IMG/VR virus record: IMGVR_UViG_2718218494_000001
Origin: an uncultured virus (IMG/VR IMGVR_UViG_2718218494_000001)
Lineage: Duplodnaviria; Heunggongvirae; Uroviricota; Caudoviricetes
Strand: one strand, 5' to 3'
DNA length: 64,000 nt
Part shown: piece by piece, positions 4,078 through 49,028 of the stretch
How positions within the stretch are numbered: position 1 is the first letter of the stretch
Layout: every line of letters begins with the position of its first letter
Position numbers and translations under genes: made by a program
Notes under the pieces: model-generated
Seen by the model: the letters and a program-made list of their open reading frames with translations, nothing else
The model's database searches: none
Told to the model about the DNA's origin: nothing

Positions 4078-5173
4078 TGTGTAAGTTCACACAGATATTG
4101 CAATTGCCTCAGAACACTAAAGGAGGGATTGCCAGATGTTGATGCAGCATATCGGTGTCGGCTATTTTGGGTATTACCGAGCAACTGCTTATGCGATGAA
4201 ACACTCTCTTATGCCCGAGATTGCGAAGTTAAGAATGAAGGCTCTGAACTTCTGGGATAAGCACGGGATCCGTGCCGCAGCTGATGCTTTTGACGTATCA
4301 ACGCGAACACTCTACTGGTGGCGCCGGTTACTGCGCACCGGTGGTCCAGAAGCACTAATTCCAAGAAGCAAAGCCCCTCTGGTTCGCCGTTCAAGGCACT
4401 GGCATCCTGATGTACTCAAGGAGATCAGGCGTCTGAGAACTGAGTTACCCAATCTCGGCAAAGAGCAGATTTTTGTCAGGCTGAAACCATGGTGTGAAGC
4501 GCGGCATTTTACCTGTCCCAGCACGTCAACCATTGGAAGAATCATTGCTGGTGCTCACGATAAAATGCGGATGATCCCCGTACGCCTCAGCGCCAGGGGC
4601 AAAGCCCGGTTGATAAAAAAACGCTCAGTGAAGCCCAGAAGACCAAAACAATACCGCCCGGTAAAAACAGGCGAACTCATAGGGATGGACGCGATTGAAC
4701 TCAGGATGGGGGACCTACGCCGCTATATCATTACCATGATCGACGAGCACAGCGACTATGCGCTGGCCCTGGCGGTCCCTTCACTCAACAGCGATATTAC
4801 CAGCCATTTCTTCAGCAAGGCCACAAAGCTCTTTCCTGTCGCTATCAGACAAGTTGTCACTGACAACGGTAAGGAGTTCCTCGGTAACTTTGATAAAACG
4901 CTACAGGAAGCCTCGATTAAACACATCTGGACCTATCCGTACACACCGAAAATGAATGCGACCTGTGAGCGATTTAACCGGACACTTAGAGAACAATTTA
5001 TTGAATTCAATGAATTGTTGCTTTTTGAGGACCTGAATTTGTTTAATCAAAGAATGGCTGAATATCTGGTGCTGTATAACAGCAAAAGGCCACATAAATC
5101 ACTCGAACTGATGACGCCAGTGGACTATATTTTACGTGAGAGTAAAAATTGCAATATGTGGTGGACCCATACA
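4078..5173 (+). mobile_element. IS481-family insertion sequence, 1096 bp (ISKpn28-like)
   Basis: TGT...ACA ends; imperfect IRs sharing ATATTGCAATT; 5-bp target duplication CCTCC (4073-4077 and 5174-5178). Confidence 0.9.
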
Positions 5174-5215
5174 CCTCCTTGCAAATTGCACGGTAAGAGG
5201 CCATACTGGTGTTGA
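4136..5215 (+). CDS. tnpA: IS481-family DDE transposase; reads through the right IR
   Basis: N-terminal HTH plus rve core (MD, TDNGKEF, ERFNRTL, YNSKRPH). Confidence 0.92.
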   Translation: MLMQHIGVGYFGYYRATAYAMKHSLMPEIAKLRMKALNFWDKHGIRAAADAFDVSTRTLYWWRRLLRTGGPEALIPRSKAPLVRRSRHWHPDVLKEIRRLRTELPNLGKEQIFVRLKPWCEARHFTCPSTSTIGRIIAGAHDKMRMIPVRLSARGKARLIKKRSVKPRRPKQYRPVKTGELIGMDAIELRMGDLRRYIITMIDEHSDYALALAVPSLNSDITSHFFSKATKLFPVAIRQVVTDNGKEFLGNFDKTLQEASIKHIWTYPYTPKMNATCERFNRTLREQFIEFNELLLFEDLNLFNQRMAEYLVLYNSKRPHKSLELMTPVDYILRESKNCNMWWTHTPPCKLHGKRPYWC

Positions 5216-5272
5216 CTAGACATTCAGTGGGCCTCGTGGGTTAATGAAAATTAACTACGGGGCTTTCTGCTT
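5214..5272 (+). ncRNA. sok: Sok antisense RNA
   Basis: GACTAGACAT...GTTAATGAAAATTAAC...GGGGCTTT matches the R1 Sok layout and is antisense to the mok start; hok leader hairpin at ~5310-5333. Confidence 0.85.
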
Positions 5273-5392
5273 TCTGCCACACAACACGGTAACAAACCAC
5301 CTTCACGTCATGAGGCAAAAAGCCTCAAGCGCCACGTCGATTATACCGGGCCGGTGCTATTTCTTACCAGGTATATCCACGCTTTATGCTGC

Positions 5393-13107: not shown

Positions 13108-13338
13108 TCAGTTAAATGCGCGTTTCAGTTCCAGCGTGCGGAGTACCTGCCCGAGGGCGGTATTTTTCATCGCGGGGATGTGGACACCGCGCCCTTTGCG
13201 GTGACTTCTGGCGATATGACGCCCGAAAGCTCTGAGAGCGGGATCAATCTCCGGTGCGGTGATATCTGCGCGCAGAATGCGCGAATGACGACGGGGCTTT
13301 ACAGCGCCTGCGGAAGGTGAAAAAATAGAAACGATCAT
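13108..13338 (-). CDS. Conserved small leading-region protein
   Basis: AGGAG RBS; typical IncF position. Confidence 0.65.
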   Translation of the reverse strand: MIVSIFSPSAGAVKPRRHSRILRADITAPEIDPALRAFGRHIARSHRKGRGVHIPAMKNTALGQVLRTLELKRAFN

Positions 13339-13429
13339 AGAGTTGACTCCTTATGGTAGTTAACGAAGCCGGAAAAACCGTTCGTGCGATTTTTACGGCG
13401 TGGGAGAAGCAGGGTTTACCCTGCTTTTT

Positions 13430-16229: not shown

Positions 16230-16460
16230 TTATCGGCGATCTGGTTTATCACTGGCCACGGAGATACCAATGTACATACCGCTTCCCCAGATAATCTGAG
16301 AGAGCACAAATAGCCACAGAGGGACGTCAACAATCAACAGCGGAAGAAGAGCAACCGTCACGATTAAAATCAGGCGGCTACCGAATTGCCGGCGCACCGG
16401 TTCAGCGGCGTCAACCGGGACGCCTGCATATCGCAGAACCTGCCTTAAACCCGTATTCAT
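16230..16460 (-). CDS. Small membrane protein
   Basis: MNTGLRQ start with GGAG RBS; two hydrophobic helices. Confidence 0.5.
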   Translation of the reverse strand: MNTGLRQVLRYAGVPVDAAEPVRRQFGSRLILIVTVALLPLLIVDVPLWLFVLSQIIWGSGMYIGISVASDKPDRR

Positions 16461-16635
16461 AATCACTCCACTCAGAATAAATGCACTGTACTTCAGTATA
16501 TTACATTTTATTAGATAACGATTCTCCGGACTGGCAGCGATCCTTCTGAAATTTCCCTGTTTTTGCAGGAACAGCAAATGGTTACAGACAACGGCAACAA
16601 GATGACTTGAATAAAAACGGCCTCCGCAAAATAAT

Positions 16636-18545
16636 GTCGCGGTAGGGATACCCGTTACCGGATACCCCCCGCACAGATCCCGGCGTGCGCGATTTACGCA
16701 CCGGGCTCCTGCCTCGGGTGTCTGGCGGTGAACCGCTCCACAGGCCATGGATGAAGAACCCGAACCCTTGGTAGCCATGCGGCTGCCAGTTTGTTTGCTT
16801 TCGTCCAGGTCGTATCATCCTTCTGGCTCCTGCGCCTGAGCGCCCGGCGCCAGAGGTTTGTTACGTGTGTCCTGAACTTCTGCATGGTGGGGAAGTTGCC
16901 CGGTACCGAGTGATAGTTCAGGTATCCCTGAACCACTCTCCTGAGCCATTTTCCCTGTTCGGGGATTGAGTAATGCCAGCGCCTTCGCAGACCGTCTTTG
17001 ATGGCTTTCAGAGTTGCCGTCATCCGATCCCGGCGGGTCTTTCGTATCAGCATGAACCTGCCGTTGCGATCTTTCCCGCTGATGTGCGTGAACCCGAGGA
17101 AGTTGAACGTTTCTGGTTTGCCTTTTCCCCTGATGGCACGGTTTTCGGCAGCGAAGCGGCCGAACTCCATCAGACGGGTTTTCTCCGGGTGAACCGTGAG
17201 TCCGAACTCCCTCAGTCTGCGCTGCATGGCTATACGGAAGCGCCGGGCATCGTATCGTTTGTCGAACCCGATGACGATGTCATCGGCGTATCTGACCATT
17301 ACCACATTGCCTGTGGCATAGCGACGTCGCCACTGATGCGCCCACAGATCGAAGACGTAGTGGAGGTATATGTTTGCCAGCAGCGGTGAGATGACCGCAC
17401 CCTGTGGGGTGCCTTCCTCCGTTGCTCGCCATTGACCCTCCTCCGACGTCCCGGCTGTGAGCCACTTACGTATGAGCCTGATTACCCTCCGGTCGCCGAT
17501 CCGATGCTCTGTGAACCTGATCAGCCATTCGTGGCTCACCCTGTCGAAGAACTGACTGATGTCGGCATCCAGTACCCAGTTTACGTTAGTGCGTACCAGC
17601 CCTGTGGCCAGTGCGTCCAGTGCATCGTGCTGGCTTCGCCCGGGTCTGAACCCGTATGAGAACCCCATAAAGTCGTTTTCATAGACTGCGTTCAGGATTT
17701 TCACCAGCGCATACTGGACGATCTTGTCCTCCAGCGAGGCGATGCCGAGCGGGCGTTGTTTTCCATCCGCTTTTGGGATGTAGTGACGCCTGCCGGGCTG
17801 CGCCCTGTAGCTGCCCTGATGTAGCCTCCGGTGCAGATCTGTTATGTTGTTCTTCATGTTTCCGGCGTAGTCCATCCACCTGATGCCATCCACTCCGGCG
17901 GCCGCTTTCCTGCTCAGGGAGAGGAATGCGGCTTCCAGTGCTTCGACTGTCAGCAGGTGGAACAATGCTGTAAACCGTTCTTTCTTCCGCTGCTTCGCAG
18001 CTTCCCGCACGCGTGACAGCCTCTGTGACATGCTTTCCCGGCTCTGTGTCCGGCGCATGTGTGGCTGTTCCGCGTTCCCCTTGGCCCCGCTCCTTCGCTC
18101 CACTGACTCCGCTCCTTTCGGGTTGTTCGCCTGCTTCGCCGCTACTATGAGCGAGTCCGACTTCTCCTCTCCGTACATCACCGGCTATGACTCCTCGTCT
18201 TCCCGGTGCGGGCCATCTCCGACACTGGCAGATGGTCAGAGGGGAGATCTCCCGGTTCCCGCGTAGAGATCGTATTGACATGCCAGGGTCTCAGACCCCG
18301 CCGGGTCCATGTGGCACTCGCAGTATCGCACCCTATGATGTTGCCTTCCGTTAACAGTACAACGTCGGCACCCGGTAATTTAATATACATTTCGTGGCTC
18401 AATGGCTGGCCTGTCAACACCCCTGTCAACGCTTCGCCCCATACCTCGCGGTATGCAACGCATGACTCGGGGACCTTGTGGATTGCTGGTCCTTCAATGG
18501 TCGGGGACTTTCACCCCTTGATCTCTAACCGGTCTCCCGGCGCAC
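16636..18545 (-). mobile_element. Group II intron, 1910 nt, apparently complete
   Basis: Minus strand starts GTGCG; ends with domain V (GAGCCCGGTGCG...CGCACGCCGGGATC) and domain VI ...CCCTACCGCGAC. Confidence 0.93.
16694..18181 (-). CDS. ltrA: Group II intron reverse transcriptase/maturase; no endonuclease domain
   Basis: AAGVDG, RPLGI, GFRPGRS, GTPQG, YADD, FLGF motifs. Confidence 0.95.
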   Translation of the reverse strand: MMYGEEKSDSLIVAAKQANNPKGAESVERRSGAKGNAEQPHMRRTQSRESMSQRLSRVREAAKQRKKERFTALFHLLTVEALEAAFLSLSRKAAAGVDGIRWMDYAGNMKNNITDLHRRLHQGSYRAQPGRRHYIPKADGKQRPLGIASLEDKIVQYALVKILNAVYENDFMGFSYGFRPGRSQHDALDALATGLVRTNVNWVLDADISQFFDRVSHEWLIRFTEHRIGDRRVIRLIRKWLTAGTSEEGQWRATEEGTPQGAVISPLLANIYLHYVFDLWAHQWRRRYATGNVVMVRYADDIVIGFDKRYDARRFRIAMQRRLREFGLTVHPEKTRLMEFGRFAAENRAIRGKGKPETFNFLGFTHISGKDRNGRFMLIRKTRRDRMTATLKAIKDGLRRRWHYSIPEQGKWLRRVVQGYLNYHSVPGNFPTMQKFRTHVTNLWRRALRRRSQKDDTTWTKANKLAAAWLPRVRVLHPWPVERFTARHPRQEPGA

Positions 18546-18546
18546 A

Positions 18547-18562
18547 CTGTATATATATACAG
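18547..18562. promoter_or_regulatory. LexA (SOS) box of the umuDC-like operon
   Basis: CTGTATATATATACAG, perfect consensus. Confidence 0.93.
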
Positions 18563-18583
18563 CTTTAAGCGAGGAAAAAAACG

Positions 18584-19009
18584 ATGAAGTTCATTCCTGC
18601 AGTATCAGAAGCCAGCATAGTAAAAATTCCTTTGTTCACAGAGCGATGCCCTGCGGGTTTTCCGTCACCGGCATCAGACTACACTGAGTCTGAACTGGAT
18701 CTGAATGAGTACTGCATTCACCGGCGCCACTCCACCTATTTTGTCAGGGCGATTGGCAACTCAATGACTGATATTGGCCTCTATTCCGGCGATCTGTTGG
18801 TCGTGGATAAAGCAGAACAGCCGCGGCACGGGGATATTGTTATCGCGGAAATTGAGGGTGAATTTACGGTAAAACGCCTGCTTCTGACGCCGCGGCCAGC
18901 CCTGCAGGCGATGAACCCGGACTTCCCTTCCCTGTACCCGGATCCGGAAACGCTGCAAATTTTCGGCGTGGTGACAGCCTTCATTCATAAAACCCGGAGG
19001 GCAGACTGA
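18584..19009 (+). CDS. umuD: DNA polymerase V autoproteolytic subunit
   Basis: CPAGFPSPA cleavage site, GNSM, FTVKRL. Confidence 0.95.
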
Positions 19010-20280
19010 TGTTCGCCCTGGCTGACGTCAACTCCTTCTACGCCAGTTGCGAGAAGGTTTTCAGGCCGGATTTGCGCGGCAAACCTGTCGTCGTTCTCAG
19101 TAACAACGATGGCTGCGTTATTGCCCGGAGTGCTGAAGCCAAACTGCTGGGTATAAAGATGGGAACCCCCTGGTTCCAGCTCAAAGAGGCGCAGTTTCCT
19201 GAAAAATTGTACGTTTTTTCCAGCAACTACGAGCTCTACGCGAGCCTGAGTAACCGTGTGGTCGCCCTGCTGGAAGAGCTGTCGCCCCGCGTCGAACAAT
19301 ACTCAATTGACGAATGTTTCCTGGATGCCCGGGGAATTGGCCACTGTATGGATCTGGAGGATTTTGGCAGGCAGCTGCGTGGGCATGTTCTCAGTGGAAC
19401 CGGACTGACGATCGGTGTCGGCTTCGGCGCCACAAAAACACTGGCCAAATCGGCGCAGTGGGCGTCAAAGGAATGGCCACAATTCAGGGGGGTACTGGCG
19501 CTGTCGCCCGAAAATCCACGCAGAACGGCAAAATTACTCAGCCTGCAGCCGGTGGAAGAAATCTGGGGCGTGGGGAACCGGATAGCGAAAAAGCTGCACG
19601 TTATGGGGATCACCACCGCCCTGCAGCTGTCGCTGACGAACCCCACATTTATCCGGAAAAACTTCAACGTAGTGCTGGAGCGCACGGTACGTGAGCTGAA
19701 CGGCGAGAGTTGCATTTCACTGGAGGAAGCGCCGCCGCCGAAACAGCAGATTGTCTGCAGTCGTAGCTTCGGGCAGCGGATCACCACCTACGAAGAAATG
19801 CGCCAGGCCGTCTGCCAGTATGCCGAGCGCGCGTCGGAAAAGTTGCGCGGTGAGCGACAGTACTGCCGGCATATCAGCACCTTCATCAAGACATCCCCTT
19901 TTGCGGTTAATGAGCCGTATTACGGTAACGTGGCCACGGAAAAACTGAACACCCCTACCCGTGACACCCGGGACATTATCGCGGCAGCGGTCAGGTCTCT
20001 GGACAGGATCTGGCTCGATGGCCACCGCTACGCAAAAGCGGGGATAATGCTCAATGATTTCAGTCCGAACGGCGTCGCGCAGCTGAATCTGTTCGATGAC
20101 GTGCAGCCACGGCCGCACAGCGATGCGCTGATGAAGGTACTCGACGGCATTAATCATTCCGGACTCGGGAAAGTCTGGTTTGCCGGACGGGGTATTGCGC
20201 CGGACTGGCAGATGAAACGGGAGATGCTGTCACCGGCATATACCACCCGCTGGAAGGAGCTGCCGGTTGCCCGTTTCTGA
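19009..20280 (+). CDS. umuC: Y-family DNA polymerase V subunit
   Basis: [24 protein letters not shown]. Confidence 0.96.
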
Positions 20281-20553: not shown

Positions 20554-21875
20554 TTGACATCCTCCCCGCCCTGAAGGGCGAGGATTCCTACAGCGTTCAG
20601 ACCGGAGCCTGACTCGCCTCGGTGGGTTCCTGCTTCAGCGGGCGGCCCGACTGTATCATCCCTCCACAGGCAAGCACGGCATGTCCTGCCGCTAAAATGT
20701 TACGTGCTCCGTTGATATCGGCGTTCTCGGTATAGCCGCATACCTGACACACGAATTTACTTTGCGTTTGACGGTTTTCTTTCGCCGTATGACCACAGCA
20801 GGCACAACGCTGGCTTGTGTATGCCGGAGGTATCGCCAGTACCTGACCACCACGCCAGAGCTGCTTGTACTCAAGCTGTCTGCGCATTTCGTACCAGCCC
20901 TGATCCAGTATCGAACGGTTTAAGCCTGATTTGGCTCTGATGTTTCGTCCGGGCCGCTCTGCCGTACCTTTTGCCGATTTCGACATGTTACTGACCTTCA
21001 AGTCCTCAATGACGATCATCGCGTGGTTTTTGCTGATTTCACTGGTGACTTTGTGAAGGTAGTCGCGCCGGATATTGGCAATGTGTGAGTGCAGACGCTG
21101 GATTTTTTTCTTCTGTTTCTGCCAACTGGCACTGAATTTAACTTTGCGGCTTAACTGCCGTTGAAGCATAGCCAGCTTACGCTGGCTTGCTTTGAAGCTG
21201 TTGACTGGCTGGTATACGGTGCCATCAGAAAGCGTGGCAAGTTTCGTGACTCCGGCGTCCAAACCGACCATTGACGCTGCCTTATGAACCTGTTCAGGCA
21301 CTTCGTATTCCGTCTGGATGCTAACGTACCATTTGCCGCATGACTGGATGACCGTGACGTTTTTAACTTCGCCGATGACTTCACGGCTATTGCGATAGCG
21401 TATCCAGCCCAACTTAGGAAGCGATATACGATTGTTGGTCTGATCGAGCTTCACGCCTTGCGGGCATCGTTTTGGCCGCGTTTCTTGAAACGAGGGAATG
21501 CTGCACGCTTCTGGAAGAAATTCTTGTAGCCGCGCTCCAGATCTTTGAGCGACTGCTGCAACGGCAGTGATGGCGTGTCTTTTAGCCACTGGGTATCAGG
21601 GTGTGATTTCCACTCAATGAGCCATGAAGCCATTTTGGTGTAGGAAACATATTTGTTCCCCGCTTCATGGTTTTCGTTTTGAAGCGCCAGCGCACGGTTA
21701 AAGACGAAGCGACAAGCCCCAGCGAAGCGCCGCATATCGCGCTCCTGCTGACCATTCGGTCTTAACTGGAATTTGAAGGCTTGAAGTCGTTTCATGAGGC
21801 TATTTTAACCGAAGTTAGTCGGAAAACCGCGCCTTATATCCCCGCCCTGAAGGTCGGGGTTTTACGGCGCACTGG
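20554..21875 (-). mobile_element. tnpB-only IS200/IS605-family element (IS1341 group), 1322 bp
   Basis: Subterminal hairpins CCCCGCCCTGAAGG at both ends; on the minus strand TTAT precedes the left end and the right end is TCAA; removal restores the stbD frame. Confidence 0.87.
20597..21795 (-). pseudogene. tnpB: TnpB RNA-guided nuclease, frameshifted near 21465
   Basis: N-half MKRLQAFKFQL..KKRGQNDA and C-half PQGVKLDQ.. are in different frames; RuvC D/E/D and Zn finger are intact. Confidence 0.9.
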
Positions 21876-24227: not shown

Positions 24228-26594
24228 CTATAAATTTACTCTTACATATTTAGTATCCGGGTCGTAATAGAACCCACCAACTGACGTTGTTGTTATTGGC
24301 AAGTTTGCATTAACAAAACCATCAGAGTTTATTTGTTTGCGGAGAAGAGGTTTAAACCCAAGCACAGGGTTTGTCACCGCATCCGATCTGTACTCATGAG
24401 AACTCGCCTTTGCCTGGAGATGGTATACGTTACCACCCGGATCAGTATATTTATACTCGTTATCAAACGAGCGCTGGTCCGAGTATGAAAACGCTGTGTT
24501 GAATTTGTTGTACGCGACATTAAATTTGTTGTTGGCGCCCATTCCCAAAGAAAAAATATAATCAAAATCTTTTGCATTTACTTTTATGTCGCAATACTGA
24601 CCTCCATTAAACTTAACAGCCGATTGTCTCCCAGTGCCGATGGAAAACACATCAGCATGCACAACGGTAACATCTACGTTGCAGTGTTGGATATATGCAT
24701 TGTTTGCTGCGGTAGCGAAGAATACAACCCCGTCCGTTACATTAAAGCCAGAGCCTTTGGCATCGCAGGAGATTACGGGTGTTGTCGCTGAGTTTCCAAT
24801 ATACGCTACTATATATTGGGCGTTATACGCTGTTACATAGCCACTACATGCCTCGCAACCATACCCTGTAATAACGCCACCACCCTCAACGATATCCGTT
24901 GCTGAAACTTTGTAAGTGATGTTCTTGCATCTGTTCCATAGATGCAAACCGGCATGGTATGCCTTATTGGTTACCAGTGTTACGCTGCCATTGACGTTGT
25001 TACTTTCAGACTCAATACCTGCGTATGCTGAATCGTTAGCTATAACATCCATAATGAAATCGGAACACGCATCAAGTTTAAAAGTGCTTCCCAGCGCCAA
25101 ATCTGAACTTGCAGACGTTGGCTGTGGGTAAATCTGACCAGATTTTTTAGCAGTACAAAATATTTTCATGTTCTTACAGCCATTATTGGCGAAGAACGGA
25201 AAAACTGAATTACTTAATGTTACGGATGAGCCTATGTACAAACCATCAACACCACTAGCCCAAAAAGAAAGGGTGTTCGCTAATGGAGATGTGAATATTT
25301 CTCTAGAATCTATTTTAGTTGCACTTTGGTATGCGTACAATGGCCTGTTAGTTGGATCATCAGAAGTTATAAGTAACTTCCCATCCAAAGTGAACTCGTT
25401 GCCTGTAACTTTTAAGGTTGTAAATCCAGAATAGCTTGCAGATAATGGGGTCGCTCTTGATAATGTTGAATCCTCACCATGCATGGTAATGTTACTGGCA
25501 GTTATAACCCATCCGTTTGTGGCCTGACTATTTGCAGGGAAATCATTGTAATATTTTGCGTTTGCCCTTAACTCTACGTAATCACCATCACTAAGCGATG
25601 AAAGCATTTTTGCAAAAGGAACTGTATCTGGATGTGAAGAACCAAGACCACGGCACCCATACCATTCAGGCCTTACTATTCTACTTGAGTAATACTCATC
25701 CCTTACGAACACCAATCCTGAATTACCTGATGTTACAACCTTTCCTCCATCAGCGATGAAGTTTGCAGCATCCTGAACAATAAATGTTCCACCACCAACG
25801 ATGTATCCATAATCAAACTCTTTAACCTGTACTCTTGTTCCTATTATATTTGGAACTATAGTTTGAAGTGTTGATATTGTTGGCGTGCTGCCTATATAAA
25901 GCAAGCCACTACCAGAAGCCAATTGAATAAGAACATCAGATGCAGATCCTGATTCAGGCAAAACGACTATTGGATCACCCTGATCGTTAAAGGCAATTAA
26001 TTTATTTTTCCTTATTTCAACCCCTGGTAACGTTGATATCCTAGATTCTGGAATTCTTACTGTTCTCTCAAAGAGAGTATCAGAATGAGAAATTGAAGAT
26101 TCATATTTCTGGTCAGTATAATTTTTCGTGGCCGCATCCTGCGCCTGTGACGGGTCACGCAGGTTACGAATGCGGTTATTGAGCGCGTCGTAATAGTTAG
26201 CGATGAACGACGGCTTGCACAGCGCCAGTCGGAGAAAGCTGAAGCATTGCTGGATAAGCATGGTCAGCTTGTCGAACGCATCCTCATGAACTTCTGCGAA
26301 GAACTTCCCCTGGTTACGAAGGTCAGTCTCCTGGGTAACTGGCAGGTCACGTGAGATAGAAATCTGCCATCCGTTGGCCAGCGGTGACATCAGCACGACA
26401 TTCCCGCCAGAATAGGTACCCGCACCGGTAACGGAATAATCGGTATCCAGAGTCAGCACCGTAATATTTTCGTTAAGGTCAGCGACCTGGACGGTGAGAT
26501 CTGACTTCTTGAAGATGCGGAACGTGTACGGGAAAGATGTGGTAACGCCGTTCCCTGTGTAGTCGTTATGGTCGACTTCGGTTGAGACCGTCAT
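24228..26594 (-). CDS. Tailspike / receptor-binding protein, probable polysaccharide depolymerase
   Basis: T7-fibre-like N-terminus (YTGNGVTTSFPYTF, HEDAFDKLTM) then an AT-rich beta-helix-like body (RPEWYG..G.G...DT). Confidence 0.88.
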   Translation of the reverse strand: MTVSTEVDHNDYTGNGVTTSFPYTFRIFKKSDLTVQVADLNENITVLTLDTDYSVTGAGTYSGGNVVLMSPLANGWQISISRDLPVTQETDLRNQGKFFAEVHEDAFDKLTMLIQQCFSFLRLALCKPSFIANYYDALNNRIRNLRDPSQAQDAATKNYTDQKYESSISHSDTLFERTVRIPESRISTLPGVEIRKNKLIAFNDQGDPIVVLPESGSASDVLIQLASGSGLLYIGSTPTISTLQTIVPNIIGTRVQVKEFDYGYIVGGGTFIVQDAANFIADGGKVVTSGNSGLVFVRDEYYSSRIVRPEWYGCRGLGSSHPDTVPFAKMLSSLSDGDYVELRANAKYYNDFPANSQATNGWVITASNITMHGEDSTLSRATPLSASYSGFTTLKVTGNEFTLDGKLLITSDDPTNRPLYAYQSATKIDSREIFTSPLANTLSFWASGVDGLYIGSSVTLSNSVFPFFANNGCKNMKIFCTAKKSGQIYPQPTSASSDLALGSTFKLDACSDFIMDVIANDSAYAGIESESNNVNGSVTLVTNKAYHAGLHLWNRCKNITYKVSATDIVEGGGVITGYGCEACSGYVTAYNAQYIVAYIGNSATTPVISCDAKGSGFNVTDGVVFFATAANNAYIQHCNVDVTVVHADVFSIGTGRQSAVKFNGGQYCDIKVNAKDFDYIFSLGMGANNKFNVAYNKFNTAFSYSDQRSFDNEYKYTDPGGNVYHLQAKASSHEYRSDAVTNPVLGFKPLLRKQINSDGFVNANLPITTTSVGGFYYDPDTKYVRVNL

Positions 26595-26750
26595 ATGAAA
26601 TCTCCGGATGTCGCAGCGCCCGGCGCGCCACACTGGAGATCATTCTATTACCCATCAAACCATATATGAATAAAACAGATCGAAACTAGCAAAAACATTA
26701 CCATTAAGGTAAACAAAAGAGCTCTGGAAAACTTTGTTACCTTTTGATAT

Positions 26751-26766
26751 ATGTATATATATACAG
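26751..26766. promoter_or_regulatory. Defective LexA box upstream of the antirepressor
   Basis: ATGTATATATATACAG lacks the first conserved C. Confidence 0.75.
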
Positions 26767-26786
26767 TATTTATGGGAGTATTCCTA

Positions 26787-27047: not shown

Positions 27048-27235
27048 TGATTGAAATCAAAATAACGATGGGTTTATTATTACCAAAATGGTAAATTTAC
27101 AACCCATTTCCCTTGTGCCATAGTGATCGGGCATCGGCAAAATCCGGTGCCGGGATTGGCGTCCCGGATAACTAAACGGCGCACAACACGCGCACTGCGT
27201 GTTTTTTTGTGCACGCGCTCTGACGCACCTATCCA

Positions 27236-27313
27236 ATGGTGGGCTGGGCGGGGGTCCGAAAGGACGCCGGTATCCGTTTAGGCCGGTACGCCAACTCCGT
27301 TCAGTTCACCACC
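27236..27313 (+). ncRNA. C4/CI-like antisense RNA (P1 c4 / P4 CI type)
   Basis: GGTGGGCTGGGCGG/CCGTTCAGTTCACC stem, GTCC-GAAA-GGAC hairpin, CCGG hairpin; loops CCGTTTAG and CGCCAA complementary to flanking target pairs. Confidence 0.8.
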
Positions 27314-27361
27314 AGTAATTGGCGTTGCGGTGGTGATAACTCTACTAAGCGGGGTATCACA

Positions 27362-48973: not shown

Positions 48974-48989
48974 CTGTATATTTAAACAG
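48974..48989. promoter_or_regulatory. LexA box
   Basis: ta-CTGTATATTTAAACAG-ta. Confidence 0.85.
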
Positions 48990-49028
48990 TATAATCATGC
49001 GAGGATTTAGTCAATCTGTCGTGACATG

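Follow-up and report, generated by a model that had tools for sequence, protein, structure and literature searches.

The known targets of group II introns are single genes, insertion sequences, terminators and attC sites. The endonuclease-less class D intron RmInt1 of Sinorhizobium meliloti relies on pairing between exon-binding and intron-binding sites (EBS and IBS) together with a few distal exon positions read by the protein, as also occurs in other group II introns, and it inserts into single-stranded DNA (ssDNA) at replication forks. Here we consider the targets of Kl.pn.I5, a class E group II intron carried by a 64,000-nucleotide stretch of DNA from an uncultured virus (IMG/VR record IMGVR_UViG_2718218494_000001; Caudoviricetes), the whole of which is referred to below as the window. 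By analogy, its mechanism is likely that of RmInt1, but RmInt1 targets an insertion sequence and not the operator of a regulator. Comparison of insertion sites makes it very probable that the Kl.pn.I5 family retrohomes into LexA operators (SOS boxes) of gamma- and beta-proteobacteria, always between T19 and A20 of TACTG(TA)5CAGT/A, where the slash, here and below, marks the insertion point.

Terminator-targeting group IIC introns and IIC-attC introns resemble the window intron in lacking an endonuclease and in landing on a class of functional motifs. IIC introns have no EBS2 and recognise a stem-loop plus 3-4 nt of IBS1, according to the passages cited from PMC3753933 and PMC3522654, whereas the window intron belongs to class E, has both EBS1 and EBS2, keeps the target sequence itself conserved and is associated with weak DNA hairpins. 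The class E (IIE) ribozymes, as treated in the passages used of Nagy et al. 2013 (PMC3753933), share with it a 5-nt domain V (DV) loop, an extra DId3 terminal stem-loop, an IIB-like size and an endonuclease-less intron-encoded protein. EBS2 of class E introns is described there as dispensable for splicing and is proposed to serve homing; the same passages describe no target class, and other RF02005-type introns examined here have unrelated targets. Kl.pn.I5 as treated in PMC3522654 is the same intron as that of the window. The portion of that paper used here derives a homing-site consensus (-25..+10) from three copies and notes plasmid-to-chromosome retrohoming of Kl.pn.I5, and the main text never mentions LexA, SOS or "palindrom" and found no free site in the MGH genome. 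The role of the LtrA protein of Kl.pn.I5 in plasmids is called uncharacterised in a passage of a 2026 mBio paper (PMC13712751). LexA-box homing by group II introns was not found in the literature searched, the coverage of which excludes subscription journals.

LexA boxes in the 5' exons of the family

On the minus strand of the window the junction reads ...GCTTAAAGCTGTATATATATACAGT/GTGCGCCGGGAG..., the 5' exon ending in CTGTATATATATACAGT (box 18547-18562, T at 18546) and the intron opening with GTGCG (18545-18541), and the insertion point falls between T19 and A20 of a perfect LexA box. A sequence-only reading of the window had proposed from this junction that the intron homes to LexA operators as a class. 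The details on which it drew (the exon end, GTGCG, an ACUG loop, AUGUAUAU and a second site beside an ant-like gene) were all found, and the tabulation of flanks that it had set beforehand as a test returned the LexA consensus, with most of the remaining clusters being near-boxes.

For this tabulation, three collections in which plasmids, chromosomes, prophages and metagenomes are represented were scanned for the intron 5' end, and all counts are among the matches listed. The first six copies inspected all follow a box, at two umuD alleles, the E. coli sbmC promoter, a genomic island and a prophage-like region. At least 252 family 5' ends were recovered. A flank of 40 nt or more is available for 247, of which 10 are intron-intron junctions, and the other 237 yield 154 distinct 40-nt flanks, which were grouped by the sequence upstream of the box into 93 locus-level clusters. 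CTG-N10-CAG stands exactly at -17..-2 in 136/154 flanks and in 78/93 clusters, supporting homing of the family to LexA operators as a class. The flank consensus, TACTGTATATAwAwACAGT/AT (T-19 to T-1, then A+1 and T+2 in the position table), is the LexA consensus.

An unbiased scan with only the first 18 intron bases served as an internal control. The box was present in 20/24 family copies, 1/19 other intron-like matches and 0/74 non-intron matches, three flanks being too short; the sole boxed intron-like match outside the family set is a divergent family relative from Herbaspirillum. The above-chance signal lies in the junction and not in the motif count. The count in the window is by itself not significant (two CTGT-N8-ACAG against 0.79 expected, with 18/100 shuffles reaching two).

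The clusters span the E. coli sbmC locus, genomic islands, prophages, a ColE1-type plasmid, and Burkholderia and Trinickia chromosomes. Among 68 open reading frames (ORFs) beside the sites, 12 match Peptidase_S24 (UmuD-like), two DinI and one GyrI-like SbmC, while 47 have no Pfam match. On the ColE1-type plasmid (11.97 kb; locus L383), the intron lies between a TTGACA-type promoter with its box and a colicin-like gene. UmuD-like, UmuC-like, DinI, SbmC and colicin-like genes are members of the SOS regulon. As would be expected with a palindromic box, both sense and antisense insertions occur: an ORF on the same strand starts no more than 75 nt downstream in 25/34 clusters with a usable 3' flank, and an ORF on the opposite strand starts 17-75 nt upstream in 37/91. 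This diversity bears on one alternative, a single old insertion beside umuD inherited with a plasmid backbone and involving no class targeting. The best 60 plasmid matches do all lie beside umuD with identical flanks, but the 93 flank clusters in different contexts and the existence of empty alleles refute it, leaving it a negligible probability.

Two extensions of the target class were considered and dropped. LexA targeting across the whole RF02005 family was rejected, as unrelated exons flank the other RF02005 introns found in Chlorobium, Cupriavidus, Variovorax and 141 Burkholderiaceae-family genomes; the habit is thus limited to the Kl.pn.I5 clade and its Burkholderia-type relatives. Alpha-proteobacterial LexA boxes were suggested by two loci with exons ending in GTTC-N7-GTTC-TGA (L092, L096), but both are from Cupriavidus, a beta-proteobacterium. 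Separately, the enterobacterial intron, flanked by enterobacterial sequence, occurs on six contigs of 0.7-12 kb (L025, L035, L046, L057, L060, L066) in assemblies labelled Nocardiopsis, Leucobacter, Brevibacterium, Arthrobacter, Streptomyces and Actinomadura; among them, L057 matches the site on the 11.97-kb ColE1-type Klebsiella plasmid. These are probably assembly contamination.

RNA pairing, the left half-site and DNA structure

The placement of EBS2 at 18383-18390 by the sequence-only reading proved correct. It forms eight pairs (one G-U) at the window site and, at the other umuD allele, seven Watson-Crick pairs with TATACAT, and it covaries with exon positions -12..-6 in sister lineages: AUGGAUA accompanies TATCCAT, AUGUUUA accompanies TAAATAT and, in a distant relative, AAAUC accompanies GATTT. 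The proposed EBS1, the ACUG loop, had to be given up. That loop reads AUCG or AACG in Burkholderia-type relatives though their exons end in ACAGT, and its 4/4 pairs are found only in the Kl.pn.I5 type, with 0-3 of 4 in those relatives. EBS1 is instead the preceding loop, UACUGUU (18359-18353), which makes 5/5 pairs with the exon in 12/15 sequence types; in the remainder, the main Kl.pn.I5 type averages 4.72 over 29 sites and one Burkholderia type 4.80, and two rearranged or misaligned copies (L202, L323) each count as one exception. Compensatory changes support the reassignment, with CCUGU facing ACAGG in L011, CUGUGU facing ACACGG in L160, and GCUGU pairing with ACAGT by G-U in L020. The 5' U of the loop could in addition pair with A+1. 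Read from the sequences, the same loop complements the last six to seven exon bases in five further RF02005 lineages: UCAGGA with an exon end of TTCTGA (L092), CCAGUC with GACTGG (L350), CCAGUAC with GTATTGG (L358), UAAGCG with CGCTTA (L355) and ACCACA with TGTGGT (L363). By analogy with IIE/IIF introns, the ACUG loop is probably the terminal alpha' loop and not an exon-binding site; a search for the alpha partner of this second hairpin loop gave no clear alpha.

EBS1 pairs with ACAGT and EBS2 with the spacer at -6..-13, both covarying with the exon in sister lineages. By analogy with other endonuclease-less introns, the ribonucleoprotein would reverse-splice into transiently single-stranded DNA and the reverse transcriptase (RT) would copy the intron. 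As the box is palindromic, either strand could be hit, and the strand offering CAGT/A and the better EBS2 match would be the one used. The left half-site TACTGT (-19..-14) might be read by the protein, or might be conserved merely because such right halves mostly sit inside real operators.

Several observations weigh against targeting of LexA operators by these means. Fifteen of the 93 clusters lack the exact box. In three of these, CTG has one mismatch (L016, L152, L170), and in two the insertion falls a single base further on in the box (L103, L115); L074 varies in spacing, L202 is rearranged and four are degenerate (L141, L158, L194, L208); in two more, comprising three loci, the left half is swapped for ...GGGAAGACCC (L132 with L185; L193), and the last two (L160, L176) belong to distant relatives whose EBS sequences differ. 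The clusters are not phylogenetically independent, and recombination among copies of the intron has partly reshuffled their 3' exons. The loose EBS2-derived motif TATA.A.ACAGT is missing from 52/93 clusters, most of them still being LexA boxes, and the control in which EBS2 is swapped between types is weak: own sites pair better in 8/9 types, by no more than 1.5 of 8 pairs, and several types are represented by a single site. The left-half CTG (-17..-15) carries 1.2-1.4 bits, compared with 0.6-0.85 bits at the EBS2-paired positions -9, -8 and -6. Lastly, neither a spliced nor a mobile form was seen, and there is no exon-exon joint in contigs of the four RNA-library runs that cover the stretch, contigs that cannot show strand, level or absence.

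In four loci (L132, L140, L185, L193), ...GGGAAGACCC stands directly upstream of (T/A)TATA(A/T)A(A/T)ACAGT/intron, and it may mark where a different element, having entered the AT-rich spacer, ends.

Because the left half lies beyond EBS2 and yet is as conserved as the paired positions, RNA pairing alone does not explain the target. Matches to the right-half motif TATANANACAGTA carry CTG at the right distance in 66/110 cases in 37 genomes of at least 3 Mb, and in 66/159 across all 61 genomes, where the reversed control of TATANANACAGTA gives 139 matches. Insertions with the right-half motif have CTG in 35/41 cases versus 66/110 in genomes, a difference (crude binomial p ~4e-4) computed on non-independent clusters, with other genomes serving as the baseline. 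This crude comparison does no more than hint at a contribution of the left half to targeting, by analogy with the protein-read distal exon positions of other introns.

The same excess of CTG (35/41 vs 66/110), in a half-site that no EBS covers, could reflect recognition of structure in the manner of IIC introns: the box would form a hairpin in ssDNA, and insertion would occur at its 3' foot with a short IBS1 only. A palindromic target and an intron without an endonuclease are in keeping with this idea, but it is improbable. The IIC hallmarks do not fit: this intron has an EBS2, which moreover covaries with the spacer, and a IIC-like stem-loop before the insertion point is unlikely. Only weak hairpins are predicted for the DNA (-1.1 to -3.2 kcal/mol), and two used sites, the L001-type site and that at 26767, are no different from shuffled sequences. 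Sites without the left half are used nevertheless (ATGT, GTGT and the three loci with a swapped left half), and the half-sites never show complementary substitutions, the sequence itself being kept and not just its pairing. The IIC analogy drawn by the sequence-only reading therefore stands for landing on a class of functional sites and fails in other respects, given class E membership, the presence of EBS2 and weak hairpins.

Selection after insertion could produce a similar distribution of sites. The intron might insert more widely, wherever ACAGT follows an AT-rich stretch, with only the insertions at LexA boxes harmless or useful enough to persist. The occupied operons are indeed accessory (umuDC, dinI, sbmC, bacteriocin and prophage genes), and the 68 flanking ORFs scanned include none of RecA or LexA type. 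Of the loose right-half motifs in genomes, about 40% are not part of a box, yet few insertions are found at these. Intergenic non-box sites should, however, be equally harmless, and both gene orientations occur. The nucleotide-identical position in 78/93 clusters and exons that match EBS1 and EBS2 with covariation also speak against survivorship, which we consider even less probable than structure recognition. Sequence-directed retrohoming into LexA operators remains the preferred explanation.

The intron and its targets in the window

The features discussed are collected in Table 1. The Rfam model group-II-D1D4-6 (RF02005) matches 18511-18286 with 186.6 bits (E 1e-54; cut-off 49). The borders are set by an empty allele in the nearest genome available for comparison (G001), in which contig G001:C2 fuses 16256-16635 to 18546-18966 at 99.5% identity; the intron is thus exactly the 1910 nt given, without target duplication. 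The copy is 100% identical to NC_009649 119263-121172, from a plasmid of K. pneumoniae MGH 78578, coordinates listed as Kl.pn.I5-1, class "E1", in the supplement of Leclercq & Cordaux 2012 (PMC3522654). Kl.pn.I5 is equated with Se.ma.I1 in a table of PMC6764390.

Table 1. Positions of the intron, its predicted parts, its operon and its targets in the window
Feature	Position	Strand	Details
Promoter-like site TTGAAT-17-AATAAT of umuDC-like operon	16607..16635	plus	-10 hexamer ends at insertion point
Group II intron Kl.pn.I5 (class E)	16636..18545	minus	1910 nt, 5' GTGCG to 3' ...CCGCGAC; Rfam, empty site, catalogue identity
Domain V and domain VI	16639..16708	minus	DV 16708-16676, DVI 16672-16639
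Intron-encoded reverse transcriptase/maturase ORF	16694..18181	minus	495 aa, longest ORF in intron
Loop ACUG, earlier proposed as EBS1	18321..18324	minus	loop of second distal hairpin of domain I (RF02005 alignment)
EBS1 (revised), loop UACUGUU	18353..18359	minus	first distal hairpin of domain I; pairs with ACAGT (-5..-1)
EBS2 AUGUAUAU	18383..18390	minus	domain I internal loop in RF02005 alignment; pairs with exon -6..-13 (ATATATAT, one G-U)
LexA (SOS) box CTGTATATATATACAG	18547..18562		with T at 18546, 5' exon end; predicted operator of umuDC-like operon
umuD-like gene	18584-19009	plus	Pfam Peptidase_S24; antisense to intron
umuC-like gene	19009-20280	plus	Pfam IMS/IMS_C; antisense to intron
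Unoccupied target, box-like ATGTATATATATACAG + T/A	26751..26768	plus	insertion point 26767/26768, upstream of small ant-like ORF
Second unoccupied target CTGTATATTTAAACAG + T/A	48974..48991	plus	insertion point 48990/48991

In the intron-encoded ORF, which lies in domain IV, a Pfam scan detects RVT_1 only (aa 135-365, E 4.6e-47) and no HNH or other endonuclease domain. The fold of the last 77 nt (16712-16636) gives a DV with an AGC triad, a 2-nt bulge and a 5-nt loop, UAAAU, in which the RT stop codon falls, followed by a domain VI (DVI) with a bulged A at 16643, 7 nt from the end (-43.9 kcal/mol, z -4.1). The Rfam D5-D6 model (Intron_gpII) found no match on the intron even at E<=1. Since a single-sequence fold of distal domain I is no better than shuffles (z +1.1), the structure of domain I was taken from the RF02005 covariance model. 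The passages cited of PMC3753933 count a 5-nt DV loop among the traits of IIE/IIF introns, as well as an additional terminal stem-loop in distal domain I. Judged from sequence, the copy is intact, with a class E ORF, an IIB-like ribozyme and an RT without an endonuclease domain.

The element matches 4,313/72,556 plasmid records, mostly from Klebsiella, and 219/5,426 complete E. coli genomes, at roughly 5,000 plasmid and 275 E. coli places. In a variant widespread among plasmids of E. coli and Klebsiella, the first five intron bases are not GTGCG (L006 1496-1500; many matches begin at query base 6), and ltrA is annotated with an internal stop; such copies at the umuD box are apparently dead.

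At the umuD box of the window, CAGT/A is offered by the minus strand only, the umuD-proximal side reading CAGC/T. Being antisense to umuDC, the intron cannot be spliced out of the umuDC transcript. In an empty allele (L339, 352-380), a promoter-like TTGAAA-17-AATAAT adjoins the box, and its -10 hexamer ends at the insertion point. In the window, the corresponding site now lies 1.9 kb from the operator and the gene, and no further promoter-like site is predicted within 18380-18800. Insertion between the -10 hexamer and the operator would thereby have uncoupled the umuDC-like operon from its predicted promoter.

Two further boxes in the window are empty. The reading from sequence had predicted the ant-side site as an unoccupied target, which was borne out: 26752-26767 reads TGTATATATATACAGT, followed by A at 26768, and the homologous site is occupied elsewhere. 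It starts with ATGT and for that reason falls outside the CTGT-N8-ACAG scan. In a metagenome contig (L152), the flank is 94.9% identical to 26118-26767 over 653 nt and then runs straight into the intron; in a viral contig (L277), the last 24 nt up to 26767 are shared, with weaker similarity upstream (83.6% over 225 nt), before the intron begins. The second site, 48990/48991, has occupied homologues in L025 and L336, with flanks 99.1% identical over 107 nt and 97.3% identical over 298 nt, respectively. In RNA-library run X11, the 3' exon of this site is also seen, as a loose end attached to the intron 3' end. Empty and occupied alleles consequently exist for all three boxes of the window.

Directly past umuC (20597-21795, minus strand), a 330-aa ORF whose C-terminal part bears a Cys-rich motif, taken together with a 114-aa ORF upstream of it, resembles a split or frameshifted IS200/IS605-type TnpB (accessory) gene. 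Rfam matches elsewhere in the window comprise sok antitoxin RNA, AS-pc01 antisense RNA, and isrK with C4 antisense RNA (phage immunity-type), at 5168-5334, 13333-13429 and 27131-27316; tail-fibre-like, terminase-like and antirepressor ORFs are also present. By its gene content, the window resembles a phage-plasmid or else a plasmid that carries phage modules.

Repeated insertion, recombination and the SOS response

Viral contigs (L263-L266, L303-L304) and L346/L348 (G064:C1, period ~1915) contain intron copies in tandem, arranged head to tail and repeating at the length of the intron, and the first copy of such arrays adjoins the LexA box. Neighbouring copies in L264 differ at six positions and are therefore not a simple assembly repeat. 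The 5' exon would be intact after insertion, and +1 G, tolerated at other sites, is the first base of the intron, so that an occupied site may be hit again. In other loci, the same 3' exon (ATATTTAACAGCGT...) follows introns with quite different 5' exons (L151, L177, L180, L193 and L302 vs L001). Homologous recombination between dispersed copies of the intron would be expected to produce such chimeric flanks. A cited passage of PMC11022923 describes plasmid-chromosome fusion or recombination at ltrA via dispersed identical copies. Contigs of run X11 break at the intron 3' border, continuing into three other 3' exons, and the word depth of the intron is ~5x that of its flanks (16300-18900); the strain thus carries at least four intron copies at different boxes.

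In the sense insertions (sbmC, the colicin-like gene and prophage genes), the intron lies just downstream of a putative LexA-controlled promoter and would be transcribed on SOS induction. This arrangement raises the tentative possibility, on balance doubtful, that the intron life cycle is wired into the SOS response, with the RNA reading the right two-thirds of the box and the protein its left half, LexA masking targets until it is cleaved, and the intron being transcribed from the promoter that it has invaded. If such coupling is true, the spread of a retroelement would be tied to the DNA-damage response, damage switching on intron and targets at once. The host, in turn, would be left with a rewired SOS regulon, as where umuDC is cut from its promoter in thousands of clinical Klebsiella plasmids.

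Homing to LexA operators, if true, makes the operator of a global repressor a new kind of landing pad for group II introns. The natural set of sites, with dozens of sequence variants, offers a way to dissect RNA pairing from protein contacts in class E target recognition. Where the operon of an error-prone polymerase has been split from its predicted promoter, insertion may alter SOS mutagenesis on resistance plasmids.

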